Origin: Candidatus Magasanikbacteria bacterium GW2011_GWC2_37_14
GTDB lineage: Bacteria > Patescibacteriota > Patescibacteriia > Magasanikbacterales > UBA922
DNA: 64,000 bases
Assembly (NCBI GenBank): GCA_000990355.1
Contig: LBSX01000004.1
Coordinates: 1,757 to 65,756, forward strand
Direction: 5' to 3'
Shown here: in pieces, positions 4,965 to 57,361 of the stretch
How the letters are laid out: each line of letters opens with the position of its first letter
Position numbering within the stretch: the stretch's first letter is position 1
Notes under the pieces: model-generated
Told to the model about the DNA's origin: nothing
Database searches by the model: none
Seen by the model: only the letters and a program-made list of their open reading frames with translations
Program-made: the position numbers and the translations under genes

Positions 4965-4975
4965 AAAATAGTTTC

Positions 4976-7228
4976 ATGGCGTTAAATACCTCACTCGTAC
5001 AATTAAATACTTTTAGTAAGAGTTTGAGTGCCAAATTAAAAAAAATTGGACTTTTTTCAGTACAAAATTTACTATTTTATTTGCCTTTTCGTTATGAAGA
5101 CTATAGTAAAGTTTTAACAATTGCTAATTTAACCCCAGGAGAACAAGTAACCATTAAAGCGCAAATTAGTGCGATTGCGGTAAAACGTGGTTGGAAATAT
5201 AGTAAAATGTTTACTGAAGCCATTGCCGAAGATGAAACTGGAAAAATAAAATTAATGTGGTTTGGCCAACCCTTTATTGCCAAAGTTTTAAAAATGGGTG
5301 ATGTGGCTTATTTTTCGGGAATTGTGAAAGATGGTAAATTGGGTTTGAATATGGTGAACCCAGTTTATGAAAAAGATACCCCCCCTAGCCCCCCCTTATT
5401 AAGGGGGGGGAAACAGAACGACACCCTTGTTAAAGTGGGAAATCGGATACATACTGCTAGAATTGTGCCAATTTATCATACAACCGAAAAATTAACGCAA
5501 AAACAATTACGTTATTTAATTAGCCAAGTTATTGGTTTGGCAACAGAAATCAAAGAATGGCTGCCTGAAGAATTTTTGGAAAGTGCAGATTTAGTACCAT
5601 TAAGTGAAGCGATTCGGGGAATTCATTTTCCCGAAGATGAAACTGATTTAGTACAAGCGCAAAAACGTTTAAAGTTTGGGGAAATTTTTATTTTACAATT
5701 GCGAGCGGAAATGATTCGCCAGTCTTTAAAAAGAGCTAATGCGCCAATTATTAGTTTTCAAGAAAAAGCAGTAAAAGAATTTGTAGCTAAATTGCCATTT
5801 GAACTTACCGCACCACAAAAAGTAGCTAGTTGGGAAATATTAAAAGACTTAAACAAAAACGAACCAATGAATCGTTTGTTGGAAGGGGATGTGGGCAGTG
5901 GTAAAACTGTAGTAGCGGGTTTGGCACTTTACAATACAGTTTTAAATGGTTATCAGGGAGTGATTATGGCACCGACGGAGATTTTGGCAAGGCAACATTT
6001 TGAATCTTTAAAACAAATTTTGGGTGATAATGTTAGTTTGGCGTTATTAACACGTTCTCAATTTACAGTTTACAATTTACAATTTACAAAAAATTTCCAA
6101 TTTTCAAATGACAAATTAAGTAAACAAAAAATTGTTGAGTTAATCAAAAATGGGGAAATTGATGTGGTAGTTGGTACTCATTCATTGCTCTCAGATGATG
6201 TACAATTTAAACATTTGGGTTTGGCAGTGGTAGATGAACAACATCGTTTTGGTGTGGAACAACGTAAAATTTTGCGTGAAAAAGCTGGTGGTGGGCGACT
6301 TAACCCACATTTTTTATCAATGACCGCTACGCCAATTCCGCGTTCGTTCGCACTCCTGCTTTATGGTGATTTGGATTTATCAATTATTAATCAATTACCA
6401 GTTGGTCGCAAACCAATTAAAACCCGGGTAGTAGAACCTTATAATCGGCAGAAAGCTTATGAATTTATTAAAGAACAAGTAAAACTAGGCAGGCAAGTGT
6501 TTGTAATTTGTCCGCTAATTGAATCATCTGTCATCCCGACCGAGTCTCGCGACGAGTGGAGCCTGCCTGCCGGCGAGGCAGGGGATCCCTCGACTTCGCT
6601 TCGCTACGCTCGGGATGACAAAAGTGACGAGAAAAAAACAGTAATGAGTGAATATAAAAAACTTTCCGAAGAAATTTTTCCAGATTTAAAAGTTGCTTAT
6701 TTACATGGAAAATTGCCCGCCCGAGGCGGGTCCGCCTTGGGCGGAAAGCCATCAAAAGAATCCGTCATGGAAGCTTTTAGAAATGGGGAAACAAATATTT
6801 TGGTTTCTACTTCGGTAATTGAAGTAGGAGTAAATATTCCCAATGCGAGTGTAATGATGATTGAAGGAGCCGAAAGATTTGGTTTGGCACAATTACATCA
6901 GTTTCGCGGTCGGGTAGGCCGGGCCGAGCATCAATCATATTGTTTACTATTTTCTAATACAGAAAACGAGAAAGCCTTAGCACGTTTAGAATTTTTTCAA
7001 AATAATATTGATGGTTTTAAGGTAGCAGAATATGATTTGGAAACTAGGGGACCGGGTGAAGTGTATGGTACGGCGCAATCTGGTTTGGGTAATTTTAAAT
7101 TAGCGACTTTAAAAGATATTAAATTAATAAAACTAGCGCGGGATTTGGTAAGAGATATAGATTTTAACCAGTACCCGATTTTTAAAGAAAAAGTAAAAGA
7201 ATGGGAAAAAGGAGTGCATTTGGAGTAA
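4976..7228 (+). CDS. recG: ATP-dependent DNA helicase RecG (carrying in-frame palindromic-element insertions)
   Basis: Wedge domain, GDVGSGKTVVA, DEQHRFGV, helicase C motifs QLHQFRGRVGRA. Extra Pro/Gly-rich segments correspond to the repeat insertions. Confidence 0.9.
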   Translation: MALNTSLVQLNTFSKSLSAKLKKIGLFSVQNLLFYLPFRYEDYSKVLTIANLTPGEQVTIKAQISAIAVKRGWKYSKMFTEAIAEDETGKIKLMWFGQPFIAKVLKMGDVAYFSGIVKDGKLGLNMVNPVYEKDTPPSPPLLRGGKQNDTLVKVGNRIHTARIVPIYHTTEKLTQKQLRYLISQVIGLATEIKEWLPEEFLESADLVPLSEAIRGIHFPEDETDLVQAQKRLKFGEIFILQLRAEMIRQSLKRANAPIISFQEKAVKEFVAKLPFELTAPQKVASWEILKDLNKNEPMNRLLEGDVGSGKTVVAGLALYNTVLNGYQGVIMAPTEILARQHFESLKQILGDNVSLALLTRSQFTVYNLQFTKNFQFSNDKLSKQKIVELIKNGEIDVVVGTHSLLSDDVQFKHLGLAVVDEQHRFGVEQRKILREKAGGGRLNPHFLSMTATPIPRSFALLLYGDLDLSIINQLPVGRKPIKTRVVEPYNRQKAYEFIKEQVKLGRQVFVICPLIESSVIPTESRDEWSLPAGEAGDPSTSLRYARDDKSDEKKTVMSEYKKLSEEIFPDLKVAYLHGKLPARGGSALGGKPSKESVMEAFRNGETNILVSTSVIEVGVNIPNASVMMIEGAERFGLAQLHQFRGRVGRAEHQSYCLLFSNTENEKALARLEFFQNNIDGFKVAEYDLETRGPGEVYGTAQSGLGNFKLATLKDIKLIKLARDLVRDIDFNQYPIFKEKVKEWEKGVHLE

Positions 7229-7233
7229 ATGAT

Positions 7234-7360
7234 TTTCCCCCTTAACAAAGGGGGACCTGCCTACCGGCAGGCAGGTTAAGGGGGTTGTTGGCGAATATCC
7301 CCCCCGCCTGCCATGCCTGGCACTGGCGGGCAGGCCTAGCCCCCCTTTACCAAGGGGGGT
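7234..7360. repeat. array of C-run/loop/G-run mini-hairpins (family 2) plus a CCTGCCTNCCGGCAGGCAGG hairpin
   Basis: tcccccTTAACAAAGggggac is identical to the module inside ugd. ggggttgttggcgaatatccccc is the reverse complement of a module at 56467-56490. Confidence 0.7.
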
Positions 7361-7374
7361 AAATTGACAAGGTC

Positions 7375-7403: not shown

Positions 7404-7409
7404 ATTTAG

Positions 7410-7898: not shown

Positions 7899-7931
7899 AA
7901 AAACATCCACCTCTTCGGCGGATGTTTTTTT
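7899..7931. terminator. bidirectional intrinsic terminator (rnpB transcript / minus-strand gene 7938-9398)
   Basis: Hairpin aaacatccacc-tcttc-ggcggatgttt followed by seven T's on the plus strand. Confidence 0.6.
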
Positions 7932-7937
7932 GTAAAA

Positions 7938-9398
7938 TTATTCTGGTAAAATTTTAGTATTTGAAGGACATTGATTTTTATCAACAGTCACATATAAATT
8001 TGTAACACCCAAGCCCATTACTGTGGCCGCAGTTCCAAAAGTGTAATCTCTTGGCGCACCACGAAATACTTTTTTCCCACCAAGACCGTACTTGGTGCCT
8101 GCGGGAAAGGTGGTATCTGGCCAAGTGTTTGGGTCACATTTAAATATATCGAGTGCTTGTTCCAAACCACCACTACCATTGGCATTACCAAAGTAGATCA
8201 TTAGAATTTTAATTTCGTCTGGGGCATTTTTACATTTGCTTTCAATTAATTTTAAATGGTACTTGATCATATTTACACCAATAGCAGTATTCACAGCAGG
8301 ATTTTTTATGGTAAGTGTATCACACAGACTTTCATTAAGTTTCATTTGTTTTAAATTTTCTTTGCAATATTCTGGTAATGTTTGAAAAAGTCCAGTATAG
8401 CCTATTTTGTTTACGATGTCGGCGTTTAAACCAGATTCTCTGTGCGAAATTCCTTTTAAAACTCTCCAATCTATTCCTATACAATTTGCAAAAGATTGGA
8501 ATACGCTATCGTATTGAGTAGAAGAAATAGGTTGGGCTTTCCAGTAGCCAACACTGTGTCCTTCCAAAATTAATTTGCTTAAATCAGCCCCAGTTACATA
8601 CGCCACTCTTAAATTTTTAAATTCCACCAAATTTGGATTGATACGATAAAGTAGGGAATAAGAACCAACTGCCAAAAGTATGCCAATGATTGCTTCACCA
8701 ATGCGTTTTTTGGAATGACTAATTTTTTCGGCTTCGCCAGCCGACATTACCCAGCCTAAGCCGGCACCAATAATCATCACAATGGAAATAACGGCCATAA
8801 CCGCGATAGCATATTTGTAAATGGCAGCAATGTATTCACCTAAAAAAGGAATATACATGTAAGTACTACCATTTTCTTCAACAGTTTTTATCTCACTAAA
8901 ATTTACTCCAGGAATACTAACACGGGGAGTGGGTTTAATAGTTTTTACTTCATCCAAAAGTTTTATAGTAGCAGGAGTAGCATCGGAGTTAACCAAATAA
9001 TCCCAAAAACTTTGGTCTTTAATAGGTAAAGGAAATTTTGAATTAGTGGCGTTTCTTTTATCTATACAATAGTCCAAGTCCCAGGTCATGTCTTCTCCAT
9101 CGTGGCATTTCCAGTCTTCGGGGACTCCACCAAATTCATCAGAGCAGGTTTTACTGGTTCCTGGATTAAAAGGAACCCACTCGCCATATACTTCTCCACA
9201 GTCACAGAAGGCCAGGGTTTTTCCATTTTCTTCTTTGTTACTGTTTTCACAATCATCGCTTTTGCATTCAGAATTATTATTACAAGGTTGACCAAAAGCT
9301 TTGGTACCAACGGCAAAAGTAAGACTGGGGAATAGACAGAAAATTAAAATAATAATAGACAAAGATTTTTTCATAGATTTTCTTCTGGATCCCCGCAT
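7938..9398 (-). CDS. secreted/membrane protein with Cys-rich N-terminal domain and C-terminal lytic transglycosylase (SLT/GH23-like) domain
   Basis: Signal peptide, TM helices, SLT-like catalytic motif HRESGLN...GYTGLFQ. Confidence 0.5.
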   Translation of the reverse strand: MRGSRRKSMKKSLSIIILIFCLFPSLTFAVGTKAFGQPCNNNSECKSDDCENSNKEENGKTLAFCDCGEVYGEWVPFNPGTSKTCSDEFGGVPEDWKCHDGEDMTWDLDYCIDKRNATNSKFPLPIKDQSFWDYLVNSDATPATIKLLDEVKTIKPTPRVSIPGVNFSEIKTVEENGSTYMYIPFLGEYIAAIYKYAIAVMAVISIVMIIGAGLGWVMSAGEAEKISHSKKRIGEAIIGILLAVGSYSLLYRINPNLVEFKNLRVAYVTGADLSKLILEGHSVGYWKAQPISSTQYDSVFQSFANCIGIDWRVLKGISHRESGLNADIVNKIGYTGLFQTLPEYCKENLKQMKLNESLCDTLTIKNPAVNTAIGVNMIKYHLKLIESKCKNAPDEIKILMIYFGNANGSGGLEQALDIFKCDPNTWPDTTFPAGTKYGLGGKKVFRGAPRDYTFGTAATVMGLGVTNLYVTVDKNQCPSNTKILPE

Positions 9399-9416
9399 TC
9401 GCGAGGATGACAGGGG

Positions 9417-10061
9417 TTATAATTTTAATAAAGTTTCCCAGCCTTCAAGAAGTTGTGGGGCTTGAATTTGTTTATTATTAAAAAATATAGTCGGCAGTGC
9501 TTGAATATTTAAAAGCATTGCCAATTGTTCGTTTTTTTGCAAATAATTTTTTGGCTCTGCCGAGGCTAAACAATCAGTTAATTTTTTTGAATCCAAATTA
9601 ATATTAACAGCAATCAAATCTAATACTTCTTTATTTAAGTTGTCACCATTTACAAAAGCGGTTTCGGCAAATTCATTAAATTTTTTTTGTTTATTGGCGC
9701 AATAAGCATAATTGTGAGCCAATTCGGTAGAAGCCGGGTAAACAGTACGAGATAAGCCTTTCCAAATCACTTTTACTTTTGTAGGATACTTAGTAATTAA
9801 TTCTTTTAATAATTCATGTTGAGCTTGGCAAGTAGGACAACCAAAATCTCCAAAAACTACCAAAGTTGTGCCAGTATTTTTGTTGCCAATTATTGGGTCT
9901 TCAAGATTTAAAGGTATATTGAAGCTGGTTGGTTTGATTTTTTCATATTCAGCCGCGCTGGGGTTTAGTGGGTTGTATTGAATTATTCTTACAAAGAAAA
10001 CTAGCATTACCAAAAGAATTGCCGGAATAAAAATTAATAAAAGTTGTTTGGTTTTTATCAT
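9417..10061 (-). CDS. DsbA-like thiol:disulfide oxidoreductase (thioredoxin fold)
   Basis: N-terminal TM anchor, CPTC active-site motif (FGDFGCPTCQ). Confidence 0.6.
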   Translation of the reverse strand: MIKTKQLLLIFIPAILLVMLVFFVRIIQYNPLNPSAAEYEKIKPTSFNIPLNLEDPIIGNKNTGTTLVVFGDFGCPTCQAQHELLKELITKYPTKVKVIWKGLSRTVYPASTELAHNYAYCANKQKKFNEFAETAFVNGDNLNKEVLDLIAVNINLDSKKLTDCLASAEPKNYLQKNEQLAMLLNIQALPTIFFNNKQIQAPQLLEGWETLLKL

Positions 10062-11275
10062 AAGCTTAAATTAAATAATCCTGTTTGATTTTTATCGGTA
10101 AAGTAAAGCGTTGTGCCATCAGGGCTTAGGTTTAAAGAATCAATGGTGTGATTTTCATTGAGTGGTACTTCAATTTTTACACCACTTTCCAAATCAATTT
10201 TAAAAATTTGGTCAGGTGTGCCATTGGCCAAAGCTGGAGCAAAGCCAGCACCAGTTTGCAAAGCAATTGGTACAGCGCAATAAGCATAGCGTTCGTCGGC
10301 AAAAGTACATTTGTCTACCCAAGTATTTACACTAAGCAAGCGGCGATTACTGCCAATATTGTCGCCTTCGGCATCAACTACCCAAATTTCTGGTTTGTAA
10401 TCGTTTCTGGCGCTATAAACACTATAAAGTAATTTTTTACCAGTTGGCGACCAAGAACTTTTTAGACCACGACCTTCTACAATAATTGAAGGAAAATTTT
10501 CTTTGTTTAAACCGACCATGAGTATTTCTTGGCGGTCATCTCCTAGTGCTTCACCAGTGGCCGAAAGAGCTACTATTTGTTTGTTTGGCGACCAATCTAC
10601 AGTTACTTTGCTAGAATTATCACCCATTGGTTCAATTAATTTAATATTTTTACCATCGGGATCCGAAGTTACCAGCCAACGATTTTCGGTTGCTAAACCT
10701 TCACTCTTGGCAGCAATTTTATCGCCAGTTGGAGAAAAGGAAAAATTTTCCCAGTGTTTTGGTAAAGAAGCTTTTTTGCCAGTATCAAAATCATAATAAA
10801 TATTAGAACCATCTGGGTATTCTAAAATTGATTCATTTTTTACTTTGGACCAAGTAACCTTTTGTACATTATAAAAAACTTCATCACTCAGGGCTTGCAT
10901 TTTTCCATTGGCGTCTAGTCGATAAAATTTTCCATCAATTTGATCATAAAATTTTACTTGCCCATCTTTGTCGGGATTAAGCCCAATTAATGGAGAATCT
11001 ACTACTTGTTTGCTAGTAATTTCTGTTTGATCAAAGCCTTGAGTGCTTGGTAAATTACCTGCAGTAGGTAAACCAACGGTAACATCGTCAGCAATAGTAG
11101 TAATGGTGCCTTCACCGGCAGTTGGTAATTTGCCTATAGTGGTAGTTGTGGTGCCTGTGCTTACATTTGATGGGGGAGTTTTTTTGGCAAAAAATACCCA
11201 ATACAATAAATAACCAAGGCCCAGACAAAGGATTACAAAGAGAATGGCAATTATTAGTCTTTTTTTGTTATCCAT
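10058..11275 (-). CDS. membrane-anchored PD40/TolB-like beta-propeller protein
   Basis: N-terminal TM. Repeated WSP(T/N)G/FSPTGDK and SPDGTTLYF PD40-type repeats. Confidence 0.5.
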   Translation of the reverse strand: MDNKKRLIIAILFVILCLGLGYLLYWVFFAKKTPPSNVSTGTTTTTIGKLPTAGEGTITTIADDVTVGLPTAGNLPSTQGFDQTEITSKQVVDSPLIGLNPDKDGQVKFYDQIDGKFYRLDANGKMQALSDEVFYNVQKVTWSKVKNESILEYPDGSNIYYDFDTGKKASLPKHWENFSFSPTGDKIAAKSEGLATENRWLVTSDPDGKNIKLIEPMGDNSSKVTVDWSPNKQIVALSATGEALGDDRQEILMVGLNKENFPSIIVEGRGLKSSWSPTGKKLLYSVYSARNDYKPEIWVVDAEGDNIGSNRRLLSVNTWVDKCTFADERYAYCAVPIALQTGAGFAPALANGTPDQIFKIDLESGVKIEVPLNENHTIDSLNLSPDGTTLYFTDKNQTGLFNLSL

Positions 11276-11302
11276 AGATAATTAATAAAAAATAAAATTT
11301 AT

Positions 11303-12688
11303 TTATTTCTGGGTTTTATTTCTAAACAAAGAGGCATTGTATAATTTATTGATTTGTAAACTAGTTTCTTTTATTTGTTTTTCAATATTTTTCACTTGTT
11401 TGTCAATATTACTTATTGATTTTTCTTTGGCGATGTTTTTTATTTCTGTGTTTACTTCTTTTATTTCTTTATTTATTTTTCGGTATTTGGGATAAAATCT
11501 CCAAACAAGTGGTAAACAAATAAAAATAAGCACAATTATAATTCCTCTAAGCTTGCGTTTTTTCTTTTTTAAAACATCTAGTTTGTCTTGCAAAGGTTTG
11601 TTTAATCTATTGTATTCTCGTTTTCGCTGGCCAATTAAACTACTTTTTTGGTTTGTTAGTTGTTCACTGATTCCTTCTAGTGGTTGTATTTTTTCACGAT
11701 TGCGCTGCGCGTTTATCATTTGGGTAAAACCGCTGCGTTGTTTAATTTTTTCTTGAGGATCTTCCTGTGGTTTGCCGTCTTCACCATTACCTTCTGGCTG
11801 ACTAGTACCATCGCCATTTTGGTTTTGGTTTGCACCAGTAGATTTAGCATCATTAGCGGTATCTTGGTTTGGTAAACCAGTCTGAGTATCAGCTTCGCCG
11901 TTTTCTGTTGGCATGCTGGGGGCAGTGTCGGTTGGTTTTTCTCCAGTATCATCTTGATTAGTTGGTGCAGTTTTGTTGTCTGGACTTGCTGGTTGTTTTG
12001 AAGGTGCTGTTTCTGGCGTTGTTTCTGGGTTCTGTTCAACAGGTTTTTCGGTAGGAGCTGTTTTGGGCTCAATTGGTGGTGGTAGGTCAGGATTTTCTGC
12101 TATTGGAGGAGTTGGTGGATTTTGGGGAATTCCACTGTCAGTTGGTTCTGGAGCGTTTGTTCCATTTGTATCGTCTTCATTACCACCGCTATTGTCGTCG
12201 TTATTACCAGCTGGATTACTACCGGCAGCTTGGGTAGGTGTGGCAATATTACCAGTTTTATTTGTTGATTTTGGTCCAGTTGGTTTTTGTTGGGCACCAG
12301 TAGTTGTTGGAGCTAGCGCTGTACCCTCATCTTCTGCAGATTCAGTTTCGTCTGTAGGGGTAGTAGTTTTAGGAGCCTCGGCAATCAGATCTCCTTCGGG
12401 AACTAATTCTGGTTCTTCTAAACCTAAATTTTCAATAGCAGACACAGCTTCTTCTTCTCCTAACTCATTTCCAACTGCTTGAATCAAGGCGGCATTTTTG
12501 ATAGCGTCTGTCATTGTTGCTTGTTCAACAATTTTTTTGGTTTCTTCCTCAGCAACTTGTTCGGCAATTTTTCTTATTTCTTTTTCAATATCTGGTTCAG
12601 CTGTTTCGGCCACGCTTTTAGCGGTATTATTAATTAGACCAGGTTTGATAGTTAATTTTTTATTAAATTGTTGGCTATTTTTGGCCAT
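11303..12688 (-). CDS. low-complexity acidic/Pro-Thr-rich protein with C-terminal TM helix and coiled coil
   Basis: Composition only. No recognisable catalytic motif. Confidence 0.35.
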   Translation of the reverse strand: MAKNSQQFNKKLTIKPGLINNTAKSVAETAEPDIEKEIRKIAEQVAEEETKKIVEQATMTDAIKNAALIQAVGNELGEEEAVSAIENLGLEEPELVPEGDLIAEAPKTTTPTDETESAEDEGTALAPTTTGAQQKPTGPKSTNKTGNIATPTQAAGSNPAGNNDDNSGGNEDDTNGTNAPEPTDSGIPQNPPTPPIAENPDLPPPIEPKTAPTEKPVEQNPETTPETAPSKQPASPDNKTAPTNQDDTGEKPTDTAPSMPTENGEADTQTGLPNQDTANDAKSTGANQNQNGDGTSQPEGNGEDGKPQEDPQEKIKQRSGFTQMINAQRNREKIQPLEGISEQLTNQKSSLIGQRKREYNRLNKPLQDKLDVLKKKKRKLRGIIIVLIFICLPLVWRFYPKYRKINKEIKEVNTEIKNIAKEKSISNIDKQVKNIEKQIKETSLQINKLYNASLFRNKTQK

Positions 12689-12689
12689 G

Positions 12690-13043
12690 TTAGTTACTAA
12701 AAACTTTTAACAATTTATTACATTCTAAATAATATTTTTTATATTCGTTTTCTATAAACAAATTACTAATAAATCCCAGATTTTCTTTTTCTTCTTCTAA
12801 ATGTAAAATCATTAGTTTGGCTCGAACTTTTATAACAGCTTGCAAATAATAATTTATATCTAAACTAGAATCATTTGGATTTTGGTATATTTTAAGTAAT
12901 TGATTTTTAAAATAACCAAGTTCTTCTTTTATTTGTTGGCGTTTTTGGGCTAGTGGTTGTTTGGGGGTATTTTTTTGTTGTTGTGTTTTTTTCAACACCG
13001 TTGCCCATTGTTGTTCGAAGTTTGGCATATTTTTGGTTGTCAT
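12690..13043 (-). CDS. hypothetical protein; start codon lies in the terminal TGTCAT of a MITE
   Basis: ORF only. The ATG is the reverse complement of the element's left terminus. Confidence 0.3.
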   Translation of the reverse strand: MTTKNMPNFEQQWATVLKKTQQQKNTPKQPLAQKRQQIKEELGYFKNQLLKIYQNPNDSSLDINYYLQAVIKVRAKLMILHLEEEKENLGFISNLFIENEYKKYYLECNKLLKVFSN

Positions 13044-13137
13044 GCTGAATCCTGAAATAAATTCAGGACAAGTACCATTTCAGCATCCCAGGGGATCCTG
13101 AAACAAGTTCAGGATGACAATTGTTTTCAGGATGACA
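13038..13137. mobile_element. MITE-like element, family 1 (copy A)
   Basis: Termini TGTCATGCTGAA...TTCAGGATGACA (right end duplicated). Two hairpin modules, GTCATGCTGAA/TTCAGCATC and GATCCTGAAAC/GTTCAGGATGAC. Confidence 0.75.
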
Positions 13138-13142
13138 GTTGT

Positions 13143-15662
13143 TTACTTTAACTGGTAATTATTTTCTGTAACCATCATTTGATAAGTTTTTTTGCGATTA
13201 TTTTTTTGTAAAATGTCAATTACCAAATCCTGAAAAGTATCTTGCAGTATTTTTTCTACTTGGCGGGCGCCTTCGTTTTCATTCCAAGATTCTTCGGCCA
13301 TTTTTTCCAAAGCGTCTTTGCTCAAATTAATTATTAAATTTTGTGTTTCTTTTAATTTGTTATTTAATAAATCTACTTGATTTTTTATAATTTCTTTAAT
13401 AGTATTTTTGTTTAATGGTGAAAAAATTAAAATATTATCTAAACGTCCAATAATTGTGGAAGTTAGTTCTTCTTTTAATTTGTTTTTAATATTTTTTTCT
13501 AATTCGGGATTAAATTCTGATGTGCTGGCGCCAAAACCAAAACCTTGGTTTTTAAAATATTCGGCGCCAAGATTGGTAGTTAAAATAATTACTGCATGGT
13601 TGAAATGAGTTTTTTTACCACCACTATCAGTTAATTGGCCTTCATCCAAAATTTGTAAGAGTAATTTAATAACATCGGGGTGGGCTTTGTCTATTTCGTC
13701 CAAAAGTAATACACAATAGGGACGGCGACGAATATCTTCTAAAAAGCGATTGCGTTCTTTGTAGCCCACATAGCCAGCTGGGGAGCCCAAGAGTTTGGAA
13801 GTACTGTGACTTTCGGAAAATTCACTCATATCTAGTTTAACCAGAGCTTTTTCATCGTGAAATAATTCTTTGGCTAATATTTTGGCTAAATAAGTTTTGC
13901 CCACACCGCTGGGGCCGGCAAATAAAAATGAGGCAAAGGGGCACTTTTTATTTTTTAATCCCAAACTAGCTTGACGGAGATTTTTTACCAGAGTTTTAAT
14001 GGTGTTTTCTTGTCCAAATAAATTTTGATTTAATCTTTCTGCCAAAGTGCTTAATTCCTGCCACTCATTATTGGTTAATATTTTTTCGTCGATGTTTAAA
14101 CGAGTGGCTAGTACATGAATAATATGTTCAGCACCTACTTTTTTGGTAATTATTTTTTTATTTTTTTGCAAACTTTTTTCTACATTATTTATACTTACAA
14201 TGGTATCTTCTAGTTGTTTTTTAAGTTCCAAAGCCTCGTTAAAATTACCACTACTAACAGCCAGGTCTTTTTTGCTAATAATTTCTTCTAAATTTTTTCT
14301 TAATTTGATAATTTTTTCTTCTTGCAGGTTGAGTTTGACTCCCGAACGCACATAGGCACAAGCTTCATCTAATAAATCAATTGTCTTGTCGGGTTGAAAA
14401 TTATCATGAATATAACGGTCGCTTAATTTTTGTGAGGTGATTAAAGCCTCGGCCGTAATTTTTAAATGATGGAAATTTTCGTAGTATTTTTTTATGCCCA
14501 ATAAAATTTCTGCAGTCTCGGCTTCATTGGGTTCATCTACCAAAATTGTTTGAAAACGTCGCTCTAGTGCTGGATCATTGGCTAAATGTTTTTTGTATTC
14601 ATCCAAAGTGGTGGCGCCAATACAACGTAGTAGCCCTCGGGCCAAAGCTGGTTTTAAAATATTGGCCGCATCCATGGCTCCTTGCGAAGAACCAGCGCCA
14701 ATAATATTGTGTAGTTCATCGATAAATAAAATAATATTGGGTGATTTACTTACCTCATCAATTACTTGTTTTAGCCGGGCTTCAAATTCGCCACGGTAAA
14801 TAGTCCCAGAGATTAAAAGGGTCATGTCTAGTGACAATAGTTTTTTACCGCGTAGTACTGCTGGTACTTTGTTTTCACTAATGCGTTTGGCCAAGCCTTC
14901 GACAATGGCAGTTTTGCCCACCCCTGGCTCGCCAATCAAGACTGGATTGTTTTTGGTGCGGCGGGCTAAAATATTTACTAGTCTTTCTATTTCTGACTCT
15001 CGGCCAATTACGGGGTCAATATTTTTTTGGATTTTTTCGTCGGTTAAATTGGTAGTATATAAATCCAAGGCACTAGAATTTCCGCGTTTATTTTTTGGTA
15101 AAGTAGAGGACCGTGGTGGCATTAGTGGTTCACGTTCATCATTGCCAAAAGTTTCTTCTAATTGCGACATAATACTGCCAACTTCTTCTATATCGGGAAA
15201 ATTACTAATACTCTGGACAATACTTTCTATTTGTTCGGTTATTTGGGCGTTGGAAATTTTAAAATAAGCCAAAGTTTTTTTAATTTCTTGATCATCACAA
15301 TTTATTAAGCCGTGCAATAAATGTTCACTACCTACATGGGCATGTCCGCGTTCGTAAGCCAAGAGCATGGCTTTTTCCATAGCTTTGCGAGCATTGGTAT
15401 TAAGTTGTGGCAAAATGGCGGTGGCAGTTTTTTCCGTGCCTAGTAGGGGAGTAGTTTCCAAAAGTTTATAAAGAATGTCGTTGTTCCATTTAAATTTATT
15501 TAAAATTTCCGCGGCGACTGAGCCTTTTTCTTCGTACAAGACAATCAAAAGCATAAGTGGATTCACTTGTGTTTGTTCCAAAGAAGTTGCCAAAGCCATG
15601 GCCTTGGCAACAATGTTTTTTAGATGTGAGGAAAAACGCTCCAAAATCTGTTCTGGATTCAT
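13143..15662 (-). CDS. clpC: ATP-dependent Clp protease ATP-binding subunit ClpC/ClpB family (two AAA+ modules)
   Basis: Clp_N repeats. NBD1 GEPGVGKTAIVEGLA / FIDELHNIIGAG. NBD2 GPSGVGKTYLAK / LLLDEIDKAHPDV. Confidence 0.85.
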   Translation of the reverse strand: MNPEQILERFSSHLKNIVAKAMALATSLEQTQVNPLMLLIVLYEEKGSVAAEILNKFKWNNDILYKLLETTPLLGTEKTATAILPQLNTNARKAMEKAMLLAYERGHAHVGSEHLLHGLINCDDQEIKKTLAYFKISNAQITEQIESIVQSISNFPDIEEVGSIMSQLEETFGNDEREPLMPPRSSTLPKNKRGNSSALDLYTTNLTDEKIQKNIDPVIGRESEIERLVNILARRTKNNPVLIGEPGVGKTAIVEGLAKRISENKVPAVLRGKKLLSLDMTLLISGTIYRGEFEARLKQVIDEVSKSPNIILFIDELHNIIGAGSSQGAMDAANILKPALARGLLRCIGATTLDEYKKHLANDPALERRFQTILVDEPNEAETAEILLGIKKYYENFHHLKITAEALITSQKLSDRYIHDNFQPDKTIDLLDEACAYVRSGVKLNLQEEKIIKLRKNLEEIISKKDLAVSSGNFNEALELKKQLEDTIVSINNVEKSLQKNKKIITKKVGAEHIIHVLATRLNIDEKILTNNEWQELSTLAERLNQNLFGQENTIKTLVKNLRQASLGLKNKKCPFASFLFAGPSGVGKTYLAKILAKELFHDEKALVKLDMSEFSESHSTSKLLGSPAGYVGYKERNRFLEDIRRRPYCVLLLDEIDKAHPDVIKLLLQILDEGQLTDSGGKKTHFNHAVIILTTNLGAEYFKNQGFGFGASTSEFNPELEKNIKNKLKEELTSTIIGRLDNILIFSPLNKNTIKEIIKNQVDLLNNKLKETQNLIINLSKDALEKMAEESWNENEGARQVEKILQDTFQDLVIDILQKNNRKKTYQMMVTENNYQLK

Positions 15663-21607: not shown

Positions 21608-21690
21608 TCCCCTCCTTAGAAAGGAGGGGCTAGGGGTGGTTGAGTTTATTACGTCAACCCCTCCTGACCTCCCCTTTCCAAGGGGAGGAA
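21608..21690. repeat. family 2 C-run/G-run mini-hairpin array
   Basis: cccctccTTAGAAAGgaggggctagg ... ctcccctTTCCAAGgggaggaaa. Confidence 0.6.
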
Positions 21691-23371: not shown

Positions 23372-23467
23372 TGTCATTCTGAATATGTTTGTCATGCTGA
23401 ATTCACCTGCCTATCGGCAGACAGGTTTCAGCATCCCAGGGGATCCTGAAACTAGTTCAGGATGACA
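23372..23467. mobile_element. MITE-like element, family 1 (copy D, with CCTGCCTATCGGCAGACAGG hairpin insert)
   Basis: TGTCATTCTGAA...GTCATGCTGAATTCACCTGCCTATCGGCAGACAGGTTTCAGCATCCCAGGGGATCCTGAAACTAGTTCAGGATGACA. Confidence 0.7.
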
Positions 23468-23530: not shown

Positions 23531-23615
23531 TCCTCCCCCTACGAGGGGGAGGCGAGGAGGGGGTTTGGCCAACCGCGAAACCCCATCCCACCCTCCCCTT
23601 GTAGGGGAGGGAAAC
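23531..23615. repeat. family 2 C-run/G-run mini-hairpin array
   Basis: cctcccccTACGAgggggagg ... ccctccccTTGTAggggaggg. Confidence 0.6.
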
Positions 23616-29755: not shown

Positions 29756-31160
29756 TGGCAAGCATTTTTTCTAGTGTATAATTTGGTTTAGGGCTTTGTG
29801 TAAATTGTTCTTGCAAATTTTGATTAGAAATAATTTTTACTAAATTTTCTGCTAATAATTCCGAAGAAGCAGGGGAGAGCAACCCTGTTTTTTCATGTTC
29901 TATTAATTCGGGAATTCCACCAACGTTTGTGGCGACAATTGGCAAATTAGCGCTTAAAGCTTCCAAAATAGTATAAGGCAAACCTTCTTTTCTGGAAGGT
30001 AAAACAAAAATATCAAAGGCAGTTAAATATTGGCTAGCGTTTTCTATTGAACCAAGTAGGTGAATGTTGTTAATTTGTAATTTGTTTATTTGTTGTTGTA
30101 ATTTTTCATGTTCTGGCCCTTCGCCAATAATGATAAACTTGGCACTGTCATTGCGAGGAGCCTCAAAAGGCGACGAAGCAATCCCGCCGCTTTCATTACG
30201 AGCCTCGCTCGAGGGAGGCGTGGCAATCCCTTGCTTCATTGGGATTGCTTCGTCAGTCAATGCGAATTGACTTCCTCGCAATGACAATAACTTTACCGCC
30301 TCAATCAAAATATCAATTCCTTTAGTTTTATATAAATTAGCAATCGTACCTACCCAAATGTTACCACTGTCATCCCGACCGAGGCTCGCGACGAGTGGAG
30401 CCTGCCTGCCGGCAGAGGCAGGGGATCTCTTGGTGTTGTGTAAGGGATTCCTCGGTTCCGCTCCGCTACACTCGGAATGACAGACAGACGCTAAAAATCG
30501 TCTCGCCACATCTCTTTCCAAAAACACCGTCTTTTCAATTCCCAATGGTATTTTAACTAATTTGTTTTTTGCAATACCTAAATCCATTCCATCCTGATAA
30601 TCTTTATCCGACAAAACAATAATTTTATCTTTTAATTTAGCAGTAATTTTTTCCAAAAATCTATAAATTGTTTTTCTAAAATTGTTCATTGGCTCATTAA
30701 ACACCCAGCCGTGAACCGTGTACACCAACTTGTCATTGCGAGAAGTCCCGAAGGGCGACGAAGCAATCCCAAGTCTAGCAAGAGACCCAACAATTCCTGC
30801 TTTAGAGCTATTTAAATGTACAACATCTGGCTTTAGTGTTTTATATAGTCTTCTAAGCTCAAAAATAGCTAAAATATCATGCCAAGGACAAATTTTTCTT
30901 ACTAAATGTGAAAGTTGTACTATTGTTATGCTATTTGCCCCTCGGCCTGAGCTCGGGACGAAGGTTATCTGTTTTTTGTTATCTGCCAAAATTTTCTCTT
31001 GTAATTCCTTTTTTCTATTCTTTTCTCCCACAGCCACAAAAACCTGCCAGTCAGTAGGTGTATTAATAGCCAAGTCATATACATATCTCTGCGCTCCACC
31101 CCACTCACCTTGGGTAATTACATAGAGAATTTTCTTTTTTTGTTTATCTTGACTTTCCAT
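29727..31160 (-). CDS. GT4-family glycosyltransferase interrupted in-frame by three palindromic elements
   Basis: GT4 C-terminal motif PSRKEGLPYTILEALSANLPIVATNVGGIPELI. Inserted peptides SLARLGIASSPFGTSRNDK, ...ECSGAEPRNPLHNTKRSPASAGRQAPLVASLGRDDS and ...EAIPMKQGIATPPSSEARNESGGIASSPFEAPRNDS. A single ORF is maintained. Confidence 0.6.
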   Translation of the reverse strand: MESQDKQKKKILYVITQGEWGGAQRYVYDLAINTPTDWQVFVAVGEKNRKKELQEKILADNKKQITFVPSSGRGANSITIVQLSHLVRKICPWHDILAIFELRRLYKTLKPDVVHLNSSKAGIVGSLARLGIASSPFGTSRNDKLVYTVHGWVFNEPMNNFRKTIYRFLEKITAKLKDKIIVLSDKDYQDGMDLGIAKNKLVKIPLGIEKTVFLERDVARRFLASVCHSECSGAEPRNPLHNTKRSPASAGRQAPLVASLGRDDSGNIWVGTIANLYKTKGIDILIEAVKLLSLRGSQFALTDEAIPMKQGIATPPSSEARNESGGIASSPFEAPRNDSAKFIIIGEGPEHEKLQQQINKLQINNIHLLGSIENASQYLTAFDIFVLPSRKEGLPYTILEALSANLPIVATNVGGIPELIEHEKTGLLSPASSELLAENLVKIISNQNLQEQFTQSPKPNYTLEKMLATTFECYLHP

Positions 31161-32296: not shown

Positions 32297-32354
32297 TGTC
32301 ATCCTGAATTTATTTCAGGATCCCTTGGGATTCTGAAACGAGTTCAGAATGACA
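32297..32354. mobile_element. MITE-like element, family 1 (minimal copy G, CCTGAA/CCTGAA variant)
   Basis: TGTCATCCTGAATTTATTTCAGGATCCCTTGGGATTCTGAAACGAGTTCAGAATGACA. Confidence 0.7.
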
Positions 32355-44163: not shown

Positions 44164-45252
44164 TTGGATATGAATTTACTGTTAATTACTCAGAAAATTG
44201 ATAAAGATGATCCAATTTTAGGTTTTTTTCATCGTTGGGTTGAAGAATTTGCCAAACATTGTAAAAAAATAACGGTGATTTGTTTACAAAAAGGCGAATA
44301 TAACTTACCAGATAATGTAAAAGTGTTAAGTCTTGGTAAACCAGCCCAAGGCTGGCCAGCCTTGGGCTGGGAAAAGTATTTGGGAAAATTGAAAGCGTTG
44401 GTAAATTTTTACAAATACATCTGGCAGGAACGAAAAAATTATGATTCAGTATTTGTGCACATGAATCATTTTTACGTTATTTTAGGTGGTTTGTTGTGGA
44501 AATTGTTGGGAAAAAAAGTTGGCTTGTGGTATGCTCATGGGCATGTACCACCAACGTTAAAATTGGTAGAAAAACTTTCTAATATTATTTTCACCTCTAC
44601 AGTTAGTGGTTTTCGTTTACCAAGTAACAAATTAAAAGTAATTGGCCAAGGCATAGATACTGATTTTTTTATTCCCAATTATAATTTAACAAAACAGAAT
44701 AATGATCTTATTTTAATTAGTGTTGGACGAATTAGCGTAATAAAAAATTATGAAACTATTGTTGAAGCACTTGATGTATTATACAATAAGCAAGGAATAA
44801 CCAAACTTAAGTTGATTTTGGTAGGTGAGGCTAGTGTGGGTGCCGAAGACTATGAAAGAAAAATTAGAGAATTTATTGTAAATAAAAATTTATCAGTCGT
44901 AGTTGATTTTGTTGGTGCTTTGCCCAATTACCAAATAGTTGAATATTTGCAAAAAGCGGATTTATTTTTAAACTCTAGTCTTACTGGTAGTTTGGATAAG
45001 GCGATGGTAGAAGCCATGGCTTGTGCTTTGCCAGTTTTAACCTGTAACGAGTCAATGCAGGAAGTATTAGGTGGTTATCAAGATTTGTTAATGTTCCCCA
45101 AAAAAGACAGTCAAAAATTAGCATCTTTGATAAGTTCTTTTTTAAACAAAAGTTTGGAAGAAAGAATTGAACTTGGTTTGGCGTTGAGACAGCTAGTTGT
45201 AGAAAAACATAATTTAAAAGATTTTATTGTTAAAATTTTATCTCAATACTAA
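44164..45252 (+). CDS. GT4 glycosyltransferase
   Basis: GT4 C-terminal region LTGSLDKAMVEAMACALPVLTCNES. Confidence 0.6.
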   Translation: MDMNLLLITQKIDKDDPILGFFHRWVEEFAKHCKKITVICLQKGEYNLPDNVKVLSLGKPAQGWPALGWEKYLGKLKALVNFYKYIWQERKNYDSVFVHMNHFYVILGGLLWKLLGKKVGLWYAHGHVPPTLKLVEKLSNIIFTSTVSGFRLPSNKLKVIGQGIDTDFFIPNYNLTKQNNDLILISVGRISVIKNYETIVEALDVLYNKQGITKLKLILVGEASVGAEDYERKIREFIVNKNLSVVVDFVGALPNYQIVEYLQKADLFLNSSLTGSLDKAMVEAMACALPVLTCNESMQEVLGGYQDLLMFPKKDSQKLASLISSFLNKSLEERIELGLALRQLVVEKHNLKDFIVKILSQY

Positions 45253-55220: not shown

Positions 55221-56711
55221 ATGAAAATACTTTATATTGGTTCGGGGTTTGTGGGTGCTTGTAGTGCGGCGGTATCGGCCGACAGTGGCCACGAGACTTT
55301 GGTCTACGATATTGATCAAAGAAAAATTGATCTTTTGTCGTCTGGCGATCGTGATACCATTCAATCTTGCCTATACGAAGAAGGGCTAGGGGATTTGCTT
55401 ATTCGTAATCGCGAACGAATTAAATTTACTACCGATTATGCGCTTGTGGAAGAGTTTTTAAATACGGCCGAAGCAGTTTTTATGTGCTTGCCTACGCCAG
55501 AAATTGGTGAAACTGGTGAGAGTAATTTAAGTTATTATTTTTCTGCTGCCGAAAAATTGGCTGAGAGTCTTTTGAAACGCAATAAAAATAAGCAAACTCA
55601 ATACATCGTGATTATCAACAAGAGCACTGTGCCAATTGATATGATAAATAAAACTGCGGAAATTATGGATAAAAGCCAAGTAAAAAATTATGGTGTGGTT
55701 TCTAACCCAGAATTTTTGGTAGAAGGCAAAGCAGTGCAAGATTCACTTCACCCCGATCGCGTGGTAGTAGGTGCTTGGACCGAAAAAGATTTTGCGATTA
55801 TGCGTCAAGTTTATAATCGTTTTTATAATTCGGCAAATGTAAAATATTTGGAAGTAAATCCCAAAGAAGCGGCGGCCGGAAAATTATTGGCCAATTTTAC
55901 TTTGTTTAATAAATTGGCAATTTGTTTTGATGTAATTGGCCGTACTTGTGAAACTTTTAGCGATTTAAAATTTGAAAATTTACGGCAGATTTTAACTAGC
56001 GACCCTCGTATTGGCACTTGGGGTATGTATGATAGTTTGTATGCTGGTGGTAGTTGTTTTATCAAAGATGCGCGTTCATTGTCGCACCAATTACAAACTG
56101 CGGGGCAAAACGCGGTAATGGTCAATGAAACTTATTTGGCCAACAAGCGCCAATTGGAATTGTTTATGAGTCGGGCAGAGAAAGAAGTCCTTCGACCAGC
56201 TCAGGATAAATCTAATTTTTCTTGGACTGGTAAAAAAGTTGCCTTACTTGGTTTGGCTTTTAAACAAGCCACCAATGATATTCGTAATTCTCCGGCAATT
56301 GATATTGTACGGATTTTACAAGAAAAACAAGTAGGTGAGATTCGTTGTTTTGATCCAGCGGCAATGTTTTGGTTTAAAACAATATTTCCCGAAAATGAAC
56401 AGATGAAGTATTGTGAGAGTGAGGTAGATTGTCTTGGTTCGGTCTCCCCCTTAACAAAGGGGGACGAAGGGGGATATTCGCCAACAACCCCCCAACCCCC
56501 CTTTATTAAGGGGGGGAATAGTGACTGTATTGTTGACGTTGTCATCATCGCCACAGACTGGCCACAATTTAGAAATTTAACTACTAGTTTATTAAATTTA
56601 AAAAACAAACCACTTATAATGGACGGCCGGCGCATGCTCTCGGGAGATTACGAAAAATTAAAAGAAAATGGTTTTGTAGTTATTCCAGTTGGGGGACAGG
56701 TAGTGAAGTAA
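55221..56711 (+). CDS. ugd: UDP-glucose 6-dehydrogenase with in-frame mini-hairpin insertion
   Basis: MKILYIGSGFVGACSA (NAD binding), catalytic GGSCFIKD, C-terminal UDP-binding domain. Inserted peptide SPLTKGDEGGYSPTTPQPPFIKGGNS. Confidence 0.8.
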   Translation: MKILYIGSGFVGACSAAVSADSGHETLVYDIDQRKIDLLSSGDRDTIQSCLYEEGLGDLLIRNRERIKFTTDYALVEEFLNTAEAVFMCLPTPEIGETGESNLSYYFSAAEKLAESLLKRNKNKQTQYIVIINKSTVPIDMINKTAEIMDKSQVKNYGVVSNPEFLVEGKAVQDSLHPDRVVVGAWTEKDFAIMRQVYNRFYNSANVKYLEVNPKEAAAGKLLANFTLFNKLAICFDVIGRTCETFSDLKFENLRQILTSDPRIGTWGMYDSLYAGGSCFIKDARSLSHQLQTAGQNAVMVNETYLANKRQLELFMSRAEKEVLRPAQDKSNFSWTGKKVALLGLAFKQATNDIRNSPAIDIVRILQEKQVGEIRCFDPAAMFWFKTIFPENEQMKYCESEVDCLGSVSPLTKGDEGGYSPTTPQPPFIKGGNSDCIVDVVIIATDWPQFRNLTTSLLNLKNKPLIMDGRRMLSGDYEKLKENGFVVIPVGGQVVK

Positions 56712-56790: not shown

Positions 56791-56821
56791 TAGTTTGCGT
56801 GAACCACGTCCCGAGGGACAA

Positions 56822-57139
56822 ATGGCCAAGGCGAAGTTGCCCTTCCTGTTGCGTTTGGACTTGGGGGAACCCATTCCTTTCTACCCCCAGAGTCCGGTGT
56901 GTACCGAGCCCAAGAGCAAGCGGCGCTACCTCTTGCTCTGCACGAGCTTGATGGTTGGGGTGCTCACCTTCATCGAGAACCCCGCCAAGATCGTGCACTC
57001 CGACGGCGGGCTCGCCAAGCTGATGTTGCCCAAGGGCGCCAAGCCCGGCGACAAGCTGATCCCTGTGCGCAGGAGCCACAAGTTCAAGTGCTACTGGGCC
57101 AGGATCGCTGCGCCCACCACCACCACCACCAAGCGCTAG
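56822..57139 (+). CDS. small (105 aa) protein of unknown function encoded in a compositionally foreign GC-rich island
   Basis: Strong GC3 codon periodicity (AAG, GCC, CCC, ATC, GAG) in this frame only. Ends in a Thr5 run. No recognisable family. Confidence 0.45.
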   Translation: MAKAKLPFLLRLDLGEPIPFYPQSPVCTEPKSKRRYLLLCTSLMVGVLTFIENPAKIVHSDGGLAKLMLPKGAKPGDKLIPVRRSHKFKCYWARIAAPTTTTTKR

Positions 57140-57361
57140 GTGCGCGCCATGCTCTTTTCTACTGGACCGCCCTGTCTTGTACGATTATTCAATTGTACAG
57201 CAGGCCAAGACCACATCCCCAGCCTGTTTAGTTTTTAAAAGATTAAAAATTGAGCAGGCCTGCCTGCCGGTAGGCAAGGAGAAATAGGGATGTGGTTTTT
57301 GTTTTAGTTAATTTTTTTGAAGCGATTATTTTTTTGTGATATAATATTGTCATTATTTTTT

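Follow-up and report, generated by a model that had tools for sequence, protein, structure and literature searches.

A palindromic C-run/G-run element in frame within a Magasanikbacteria UDP-glucose dehydrogenase gene, and the association of its family with DUF559 genes

We analysed 64,000 nucleotides of contig LBSX01000004.1 of Candidatus Magasanikbacteria bacterium GW2011_GWC2_37_14 (this whole stretch is called the window hereafter), in which the ugd gene, encoding a UDP-glucose dehydrogenase, is interrupted by a GC-rich palindromic element that leaves the reading frame intact. The GC content of the window is 34.6%, while that of the element locally exceeds 70%. The gene is surrounded by a surface-polysaccharide cluster comprising GT4/GT1 glycosyltransferases, Wzx, Wzy, methyltransferases, radical-SAM enzymes and epimerases. 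The features of the gene and its insert are as follows:

55221..56711, plus strand: ugd-like host gene of the UDP-glucose/GDP-mannose dehydrogenase family, 496 aa, apparently intact.
56445..56516, plus strand: complete tripartite palindromic element H1-M-H3, in frame, residues 409-432.
56445..56464, plus strand: H1 hairpin, the left arm, TCCCCCTT-aaca-AAGGGGGA, with a perfect stem of 8 bp.
56469..56493, plus strand: M, the centre, G5-ATATTCGCCAACAA-C6, i.e., a G-run arm and a C-run arm around a central loop.
56496..56516, plus strand: H3 hairpin, the right arm, CCCCCCTT-tatt-AAGGGGGG(G).

In the 496-aa protein, Pfam recognised the N-terminal, central and C-terminal domains of the family, but the C-terminal match was broken into two stretches, of which the listed best one stops at residue 399, ten residues before the start of the insert. 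Solved UDP-glucose dehydrogenases from the PDB matched the protein with E 1e-43, and the invariant G276, G277, S278, C279, K282 and D283 of the GGSCFIKD stretch are retained. The AlphaFold2 (AF2) model, with a predicted local distance difference test (pLDDT) score of 83 and a predicted template modelling (pTM) score of 0.79, superposes on BceC, UgdG and human UGDH with TM scores of 0.77-0.88. The host gene thus has all three family domains, the catalytic Cys motif and the Ugd fold. For both Ugd and RecG, which is encoded in the same window, the top protein matches were from Candidatus Magasanikbacteria, a group of the candidate phyla radiation (CPR, or Patescibacteria).

The element itself (72 nt) reads TCCCCCTTAACAAAGGGGGA-CGAA-GGGGGATATTCGCCAACAACCCCCC-AA-CCCCCCTTTATTAAGGGGGGG, and in the ugd frame it gives rise to the peptide SPLTKGDEGGYSPTTPQPPFIKGGNS (residues 409-434 of 496); compared to Ugd orthologues with an empty site, the net gain amounts to about 30 codons when short flanks are counted. 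Of the three sense frames running through the insert, only the gene's own frame is open, which argues that the segment is simply translated into a disordered loop and tolerated. The loop is rich in Pro and Gly because C-runs make Pro codons and G-runs make Gly codons. In the AF2 model, residues 409-434 lie between a helix (401-405) and a strand (440-443) of the C-terminal Rossmann-like domain, and pLDDT falls below 50 for residues 415-433; as judged from the Rossmann topology, this helix-to-strand loop probably points to the side opposite the nucleotide-sugar pocket. Among 120 aligned Ugd homologues, about 105 read ...EAI-K-xADVVIIATDW with zero extra residues at this site. Together with the sequence and the frame, this confirms the in-frame C-run/G-run hairpin insertion in ugd that had been reported by a first-pass annotation of the window.

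The same 496-aa protein and identical ugd DNA were found on independently assembled contigs, nine in all, coming from the ENA assemblies ERZ27254739 (which holds the 72,189-bp source contig) and ERZ27254745 and from JGI 3300025308. This rules out an assembly artefact, and indicates that neither the insert nor its homopolymer runs are spurious, both being stable at the consensus level.

The termini of the ugd element form an inverted repeat of 21 nt (56443-56463 and 56497-56517) with 90% complementarity. The minimum free energy (MFE) of its RNA is -44.3 kcal/mol (z -3.97), a stability reached by 0 of 200 shuffled sequences, and the antisense strand yields -51.7 kcal/mol (z -5.3). The MFE structure pairs C1:G3, G1:C3 and G2:C2. 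The sequence can fold either as three hairpins or as a single long hairpin.

All three parts of the ugd copy recur elsewhere in the window. The sequence TCCCCCTTAACAAAGGGGGAC at 56445-56465 is repeated at 7236-7256 on the same strand (21 of 21 nt), GGGGGATATTCGCCAACAACCCCC at 56469-56492 on the plus strand is the exact reverse complement of 7280-7303 on the minus strand (24 of 24 nt), and CCCCCCTTTATTAAGGGGGG at 56496-56515 differs by one mismatch from 5389-5408 within recG and by two mismatches from 7340-7359; the chance expectation for the matches of H1, M and H3 was 0 in 100 dinucleotide shuffles. The first-pass annotation had therefore correctly described a first hairpin with an identical twin, a middle module that is the reverse complement of an intergenic stretch, and a last hairpin resembling the recG insert, although H1 starts at 56445 rather than 56444, and its twin occupies 7236-7256 rather than 7239-7259. 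What it took for independent modular pieces are, however, repeated parts of one palindromic unit, namely the left arm, the centre and the right arm, and this unit recurs as a whole at 7236-7359, 21609-21688 and 23532-23611. Its statement that the modules occur in either orientation holds for the central loop, which is flipped, but not for H1, which has the same orientation in both copies. Because C-run..G-run hairpins read alike on both strands, the orientation is visible in the loops alone, and this explains why the middle module appeared inverted. Apart from the ugd copy, the window contains the following units:

5379..5410, plus strand: half element within recG, in frame, C7-TAG-C7-TTATTAA-G8, giving ..TPPSPPLLRGGKQ..
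7236..7359, plus strand: intergenic full copy just 3' of recG, with the central loop flipped relative to the ugd copy.
21609..21688, plus strand: intergenic full copy upstream of a sigma-70 family gene, with the stem variant CCCCTCCTT/AAGGAGGGG ... CCTCCCCTT/AAGGGGAGG.
23532..23611, plus strand: intergenic full copy of a conserved subfamily, CCTCCCCCTacgAGGGGGAGG - GGAGGGGGTTT..AAACCCCATCC - CCCTCCCCTtgtAGGGGAGGG.

The window thus harbours four full copies, three of them intergenic, and the half copy in recG. In a full copy (about 72-80 nt), a C-run..G-run hairpin is followed by a short spacer, a G-run...C-run centre, another short spacer and the second hairpin; the half units, found in recG (5379-5410) and in the ugd genes of the relatives L003, L005, L006 and L009, consist of a C-run, a spacer and a hairpin. 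The junctions within units read CGAA, AA, TTAA, CTAG, TGAC, CGA or CAC, and the ends are T/C-run ... G-run/A. The inventory of the 64 kb includes nine H-type hairpins and four M centres, and the overall number of perfect GC-rich hairpins (45 raw matches, about 30 of them distinct) clearly exceeds the 0-2 seen in mononucleotide shuffles. The copy at 21609-21688 folds as three hairpins (-47.7 kcal/mol, z -4.6). The copy at 7236-7359 carries two unrelated CCTGCC..GGCAGG hairpins nested at the H1/M junction (7256-7275) and the M/H3 junction (7306-7335), and nesting at the same two junctions was also seen in the metagenome copies L062, L066 and L079. Open reading frames (ORFs) of at least 150 aa span 89% of the window, yet three of the four full copies are intergenic, thus indicating selection against coding insertions.

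No Rfam family, ribozymes and introns included, reached the gathering score anywhere in the window; a scan of 7200-7960 at E<=1 gave only sub-threshold, chance-level matches, and no tRNA or tmRNA was found in the window, so that a known structured RNA was rejected as an explanation of the element. An intrinsic terminator was rejected as well, since a T-run precedes and an A-run follows the palindrome, which is the reverse of the terminator order. An exact search of a genome-contig collection with the central 24-mer gave 0 matches, and a Ugd search of the same collection returned uninformative loci only (Planctomycetota and others at 24-27% identity, L011-L025).

The comparison with relatives shows that the element is present at some sites and absent from others. 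At precisely this site, about 12 of the closest Ugd homologues bear Pro-...Gly-rich inserts that are 4-17 residues long. DNA was available for nine ugd loci, and every insert read proved to be a C-run/loop/G-run hairpin, often with a second C-run in front, as exemplified by ccaacaCCCCCCaaCCCCCCtcaaGGGGGG in L005, while the ugd gene of L010 has an empty site. H3 has homologues in the C-run/C-run-loop-G-run inserts that L003, L005, L006 and L009 carry at this site, whereas ugd of L001 retains the left half of the unit. In a neighbour-joining tree built with the insert columns left out, insert-bearing Ugd proteins appear in at least five places beside sisters with an empty site. As an alignment of 12 copies made by MAFFT was unfit for covariation counts (loops of 3 and 4 nt shift the stem columns), compensated stem variants were read directly from the sequences.

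The inserts differ between genomes in a telling way. The ugd genes of the window and L001 are 76% identical in DNA, but the L001 copy has the stem CCCCCTCTT/AAGAGGGGG and the loop ACC, just as L001's own copies at 16238 and 16317 do. Each genome's ugd copy therefore resembles the other copies of that genome, which requires recent copying or gene conversion in addition to vertical decay. L001 also bears a full copy in frame inside a GT2 glycosyltransferase gene, and near-identical relatives of the 23532-23611 copy are located at non-orthologous sites in L001 (11938-12011) and L010 (20466-20544). The contig L026 is colinear with positions 1122-14510 of the window at about 80% identity, but the two recG inserts are cleanly missing from it; the half element is also missing from the 82%-identical RecG P0122, and RecG homologues bear patchy P..G-type inserts in the same variable loops. 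Thus, the earlier claim that the same modules lie both between and inside genes is borne out for ugd and recG, by the alignment of orthologues and by absence from the 80%-identical relative. The hairpin inserts at the ugd site in about 12 homologues come near to a situation that the first-pass annotation regarded as fatal to its proposal, i.e., conservation of the segment in Ugd homologues devoid of intergenic counterparts; they do not amount to it, and the contig of the closest relative, L001, has copies elsewhere (one intergenic, one in the GT2 gene), and its ugd copy is more like these than like the copy in the window.

To follow the family beyond these genomes, we used as an exact query the 21-mer CCCTCCCCTTGTAGGGGAGGG, which belongs to the conserved subfamily (as at 23591-23611). 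It was found on at least 118 metagenome contigs with a GC content of 31-72%. The low-GC matches repeat the full unit, some with nested hairpins, and the high-GC matches have the same layout. The exact 21-mer is also present on two IMG/VR contigs classed as viral (L145, L146).

A screen for ORFs framed by the hairpins revealed a protein of about 120 aa in L107 and L111, which was identified as DUF559 (PF04480) with E 1e-33 to 1e-37. Among the 118 21-mer matches listed, DUF559 is encoded on seven contigs, and in six of them the gene lies no more than about 220 nt from a hairpin. In L111 (GC 0.31), L107 and L072 the gene is placed between the G-arm and the C-arm of the unit, so that the gene-bearing element has the layout H1 - G arm - [DUF559] - C arm - H3. 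The homologues of this protein include those named by NCBI as Magasanikbacteria or Patescibacteria. In the Magasanikbacteria metagenome-assembled genome GCA_016182085.1 (L162), the DUF559 gene is framed likewise, with ..AGGGGGAGGatataGGAGGGGGTTT..ATG on the 5' side and TAAACCCCACCCtttatCCCTCCCCTtgtAGGGTAGGG on the 3' side, and in both L111 and L162 it is the framework of the 23532-23611 subfamily that surrounds the gene. Beyond these contigs, the flanks of 15 stand-alone DUF559 genes were read, and C/G-run hairpins were present on both sides in 13 cases and on one side in the other two. The sites in cultured bacteria include:

Deinococcus psychrotolerans: DUF559 gene between paaD and paaZ, with inverted hairpin-plus-tail units on either side.
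Deinococcus proteolyticus and D. aetherius: DUF559 gene between hpaB and hpaE, with 2 of 4 and 2 of 2, respectively, of all such hairpins in 20 kb.
Azospirillum lipoferum: stand-alone DUF559 gene between inverted hairpin-plus-tail units.
Sphingomonas parapaucimobilis: DUF559 gene between the gene of the NAD(P) transhydrogenase subunit alpha and a proton-translocating transhydrogenase family gene (pntA/pntB).
Pseudanabaena ABRG5-3: DUF559-flanking units GCCCCCC-TAG-CCCCCCaattctGGGGGG, which mirror the recG insert of the window.
Picosynechococcus and Synechocystis: stand-alone DUF559 genes with C/G-run hairpins.

On plasmid records of Deinococcus, Sphingomonas and Sphingobium (L153, L156, L160, L159 and L161), the hairpin-framed DUF559 genes stand alone within catabolic or respiratory clusters, namely at paaD/paaZ and hpaB/hpaE, between transhydrogenase subunit genes, and among genes for acyl-CoA carboxylase, carboxyl transferase and isovaleryl-CoA dehydrogenase. 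A selfish insertion into operon spacers would be expected to give this picture. As to the protein, the nearest solved structure is the uncharacterised 3HRL (E 1.5e-19). DUF559 groups with Vsr in the PD-(D/E)xK superfamily (PMC3424549, PMC3239194, PMC9403480), and one member of the Vsr/DUF559 clade, I-Bth0305I (EDxHD family), is a proven homing endonuclease (PMC3424549, PMC3239194). None of the papers listed as mentioning DUF559 is about palindromic repeats, as far as titles and abstracts tell.

The junction between a hairpin and a homopolymer tail often reads CTAGG on one strand, as at 5386-5390, 7336-7340 and 21630-21634 of the window and in L158, L152 and L157. CTWGG is the T:G-mismatch recognition sequence of the E. 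coli Vsr, a fold relative of DUF559. The CTAGG junction equals CTWGG, which we take as a lead only, and it is missing from the ugd copy.

Taken together, these data lead us to favour, with a probability of about 0.68, the interpretation that the ugd insert is a miniature version, lacking the gene, of a DUF559-associated palindromic element, and that it is translated and tolerated. The family of palindromic units is dispersed in this Magasanikbacteria genome and its relatives. The unit consists of two inverted hairpin-plus-homopolymer-tail arms (H1 with a G-run; a C-run with H3) around a short central loop, which in the longer copies is replaced by the gene of a DUF559 endonuclease of about 120 aa (Vsr-like, PD-(D/E)xK). 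[quoted passage not shown] We infer that the element is, or was, mobile, and that the DUF559 nuclease may drive its mobility in trans. The short units, as putative non-autonomous derivatives, could be spread or homogenised by the repair of nuclease-induced breaks, in a homing-like manner, or by gene conversion among copies, whereas recombination or template switching between the inverted G/C runs might flip the loops while keeping the stems perfect. The ugd copy probably landed, or was kept, in a permissive loop of the C-terminal UDP-sugar-binding domain, and coding copies would persist only in permissive loops and with an open frame. For Ugd, the insert is most likely neutral, with no part in the function of the enzyme.

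Several observations weigh against this interpretation. Neither a DUF559 gene nor a transposase or a REP-associated tyrosine transposase (RAYT) lies within the 64-kb window. It is also conceivable that the DUF559 gene does not move the palindromes but, as a passenger, homes into ones already present. No target-site duplication or target motif was found when filled and empty recG and ugd sites were compared, and no insertion/excision polymorphism was seen within the population, ugd being identical across the three assemblies. The Ugd tree has no support values. Finally, no further hairpin of the family was detected within 77 kb around ugd in L003, L005, L008 and L009, and for this reason the ugd inserts of these four may be relics passed down vertically from long ago, instead of pointing to activity.

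The latter possibility can be extended to all ugd inserts: a single ancestral entry into the ugd loop might have been followed by vertical inheritance and by lineage-wise decay or loss, with nothing mobile today. The exact coincidence of the insertion site in about 12 Ugd homologues agrees with this view, as do the layout caaca-C6-NN-C6-loop-G6 shared by the window with the right halves in L003, L005, L006 and L009, the fact that the window and L001 have H1 and the 5' portion of M in common at one ugd position, the lack of another copy nearby in several relatives, and the lack of polymorphism in the population. It is at odds with the complete identity of H1 (21/21) and M (24/24) to another locus of the same genome, when window and L001 share only 76% identity in their ugd genes, as well as with the L001-specific stem variants of the L001 ugd copy and with the patchy distribution on the tree beside empty-site sisters. 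In addition, C and G have been retained at third codon positions in genomes of 31-44% GC. We therefore regard an exclusively vertical origin as unlikely.

We also considered a cis-acting structure maintained by selection, which might be a hairpin serving translation, mRNA stability or replication, a switch by which intergenic copies sequester the Shine-Dalgarno sequence, a G-quadruplex/i-motif, or C5-6/G5-7 tracts for phase variation of a surface-polysaccharide gene. The fold is indeed very stable, its stems are kept by compensated changes on both arms, and ugd belongs to a glycan cluster. In many copies (L028, L034, L050, L111, L136, L137 and many others), the G arm is followed by a second G block, GGGGAGGG-N2-3-GGGTGGGG, which makes up a canonical G-quadruplex motif and, on the opposite strand, an i-motif. 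Moreover, the full low-GC copies (about nine) include six whose 3' arm, the GGAGG-containing AGGGGAGGG, stops 8-11 nt before the next ATG (such loci are L001 12011-12022, L010 20544-20556, L066, L074, L079, L062 and L162 10536-10564), so that the element may supply or mask a Shine-Dalgarno sequence there. As a general explanation, however, Shine-Dalgarno sequestration was rejected: the 115 metagenome matches listed had neither an orientation bias nor a distance peak relative to starts, and starts within 40 nt of a hairpin in the low-GC set were divided into 18 sense and 16 antisense. The copies reside in contexts that are not related to one another, protein loops among them, the insert is lacking in most Ugd orthologues, and the assembled consensus of the three assemblies contains no tract-length variants. 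Template switching or gene conversion would keep the arms of the palindrome complementary even without selection. All this makes a selected cis-acting role quite improbable.

Slightly less credit still can be given to a classical REP/REPIN system mobilised by a RAYT, i.e., by an IS200/IS605-like tyrosine transposase. Short, mostly extragenic palindromes that pair up as inverted doublets and give one long hairpin, with half units comparable to REP singlets, fit the definition of REPINs (PMC3116915), and intragenic REPs have been documented, including dimers, copies in repair genes and same-site copies in related species (PMC3733652). But a consistent terminal GTAG/CGTC tag is lacking (GTAG is confined to the interior of some subfamily-A hairpins), the 42 ORFs of the window yielded no Y1 transposase domain, and the gene that actually sits inside the framework is DUF559; a tblastn search with an IS200 TnpA sequence detected nothing in 1.17 Mb of the window and loci, which is a weak negative. 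Finally, it is hardly credible that the insert escapes translation, being cut out of the mRNA or skipped by the ribosome in the manner of the GC-cluster-derived 'byp' elements of Magnusiomyces mitochondria: a GC-rich hairpin insert in a coding sequence of an AT-rich genome is the very setting where bypassing was described (PMC8811140), but all of the about 13 in-gene copies examined keep the frame and are free of stops, the other two sense frames of ugd are closed, Rfam gave no match (ribozymes and introns included), and the loop position makes translation harmless.

Other inserts and unusual segments were noticed alongside this family. Within recG, a double hairpin at 6713-6745 (GCCCGCCcgaGGCGGGT + CCGCCttgGGCGG) is read in frame as PARGGSALGGK; it is patchy at the same RecG site, being present in P0136, P0142, P0146 and P0162 and absent from the 82%-identical P0122/L026. 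A second MITE-like family, with the termini GTCATyCyGA ... TCrGrATGAC, has about 16 termini in the window; its sites include recG 6530-6619, where the in-frame translation is VIPTESRDEW..SLRYARDDK, a GT4 gene (30369-30481, minus strand), 23373-23466, 32298-32353 and others, as well as L001 7337-7433. The copy in a glycosyltransferase lies in the interdomain linker, and the family often has a CCTGCC..GGCAGG hairpin nested centrally. A perfect 30-nt palindrome at 44341-44370, CCAGCCCAAGGCTGG|CCAGCCTTGGGCTGG, is in frame (..KPAQGWPALGWEK..) within the gene of a GT1-family glycosyltransferase (44164..45252) and, by its sequence, is probably another in-gene palindromic insert.

The intergenic stretch 7229-7937, which includes the hairpin array 3' of recG, is 709 nt long compared to 41 nt in the colinear L026. 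Besides the array, it contains a consensus sigma-70-type promoter (TTGACA at 7376, TATAAT at about 7399), then a GC-richer part of about 500 nt without a long ORF and an intrinsic terminator at 7903-7930, with no Rfam match; this stretch may be a novel non-coding RNA or another mobile insertion. Directly 3' of ugd, in a genome of 35% GC, a small ORF of 114 aa (56795-57139) has a GC-rich core, flagged at 56979-57152 by 30-nt windows of at least 70% GC; a similar protein is encoded in the relative L001 (about 6790-7110), and a non-coding segment that is also conserved comes next.

The phenomenon as such is not new, since REP/REPIN sequences, Rickettsia palindromic elements (RPEs) and GC clusters have also been found in frame inside genes (PMC3733652, PMC10969869, PMC8811140). 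Our search of the literature revealed nothing of the in-frame palindromic repeat kind described for CPR/Patescibacteria, and what appears to be new is the CPR lineage, the stem architecture of homopolymeric C/G runs and, above all, the physical link to DUF559 across phyla. RPEs, CGTC-tagged REPs and GC clusters, which are commonly inside genes, have no known partner enzyme, whereas here a candidate partner is physically tied to the repeats: a DUF559 nuclease gene placed centrally in the same hairpin framework, in organisms of four phyla. If functional, this link would assign a role to a very common 'domain of unknown function', define a new REPtron-like type of element, and give a single origin to many Pro-/Gly-rich loops. 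Peptides of the 'PPxxKGG' type in metagenome annotations might then possibly have the same origin. On a more practical side, such inserts inflate protein lengths, split domain matches (as seen with Pfam in this case) and can lead alignment and gene calling astray in CPR genomes; they also illustrate that selfish DNA of this kind can ride inside working proteins.

A bolder generalisation, to which we would assign somewhat less than even odds, is that DUF559 genes framed by inverted C-run/G-run hairpins constitute a pan-bacterial class of selfish elements that has so far gone undescribed and occurs in CPR, Cyanobacteria, Deinococcota and Alphaproteobacteria, REPtron-like but built on a PD-(D/E)xK nuclease. 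Their gene-less miniatures would spread by homing-like repair or gene conversion to spacers and, repeatedly, into the same surface loops of proteins (Ugd, RecG, glycosyltransferases), where they would be read as Pro/Gly-rich loops. Such a class would provide DUF559 with a function.

Among known repeats that nest in a similar manner, the small dispersed repeats (SDRs) of Nostoc described by Elhai et al. in 2008 are reportedly hairpin repeats of 21-27 nt that nest in one another and in other repeats. We know of no in-frame protein inserts or nuclease partner described for these cyanobacterial sequences.

A parallel to several architectural traits of the element is offered by REPs, REPINs and REPtrons. 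Both are short imperfect palindromes (repeated units of 20-40 bp) that form inverted doublets folding into one long hairpin and decay to singlets (PMC3116915), both are mostly intergenic with occasional in-frame copies, including those in repair genes and at the same site in related species (PMC3733652), and the repeats of both enclose a protein-coding gene. The stems of the element under study are, however, homopolymer-like C- and G-runs. Because the GTAG/CGTC tag is absent, the element is not a member of the GTAG/CGTC REP superfamilies; no RAYT was found among the 42 ORFs of the window. The framed gene also differs, both in nature, as it encodes a DUF559 PD-(D/E)xK (Vsr-like) endonuclease instead of an HUH tyrosine transposase, and in position, as it resides inside the doublet between the arms, while the REPtron gene stands beside REP arrays.

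RPEs are likewise selfish palindromic repeats, translated in frame in unrelated conserved genes at fold-tolerant sites (Ogata 2000, as summarised in PMC10969869), but they are about 100-150 bp long, confined to Rickettsia and without a known partner gene, whereas the element described here measures 72-80 nt, belongs to a CPR lineage, has its hairpin motif on contigs of 31-72% GC and possesses a candidate partner nuclease. The GC clusters of yeast mitochondria resemble it as GC-rich palindromic mini-elements of an AT-rich genome which can lengthen a protein in frame (var1), and which show arrays, nesting, merging, fast loop change and TAG-like junctions (PMC8811140). Unlike our element, they reside in mitochondria and lack an associated nuclease gene, and some are bypassed in translation, of which there is no sign here; in the window, TAG/CTAG occurs at internal junctions (5386-5388, 7336-7339, 21630-21633) and not as flanking duplications.

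In common with MITEs, short non-coding derivatives share their termini, here inverted repeats of 21 nt, with a gene-carrying element, and the shared framework does surround the DUF559 gene in L111, L107, L072 and L162. Nevertheless, the element is not a classical MITE, because no target-site duplication was found and its parent gene, DUF559, is not a recognised transposase. As regards Vsr-like/EDxHD homing endonucleases such as I-Bth0305I, the differences are that no intron or intein is involved, that the gene is framed by hairpin inverted repeats and accompanied by gene-less miniatures, and that the activity of DUF559 proteins of this type is putative. The resemblances are that the partner protein, whose gene is found in the elements of relatives and not in the window, belongs to the Vsr/DUF559 clade (PMC3424549, PMC3239194), and that the lone small DUF559 genes in operon spacers (paaD/paaZ, hpaB/hpaE, pntA/pntB) are reminiscent of free-standing homing endonuclease genes.

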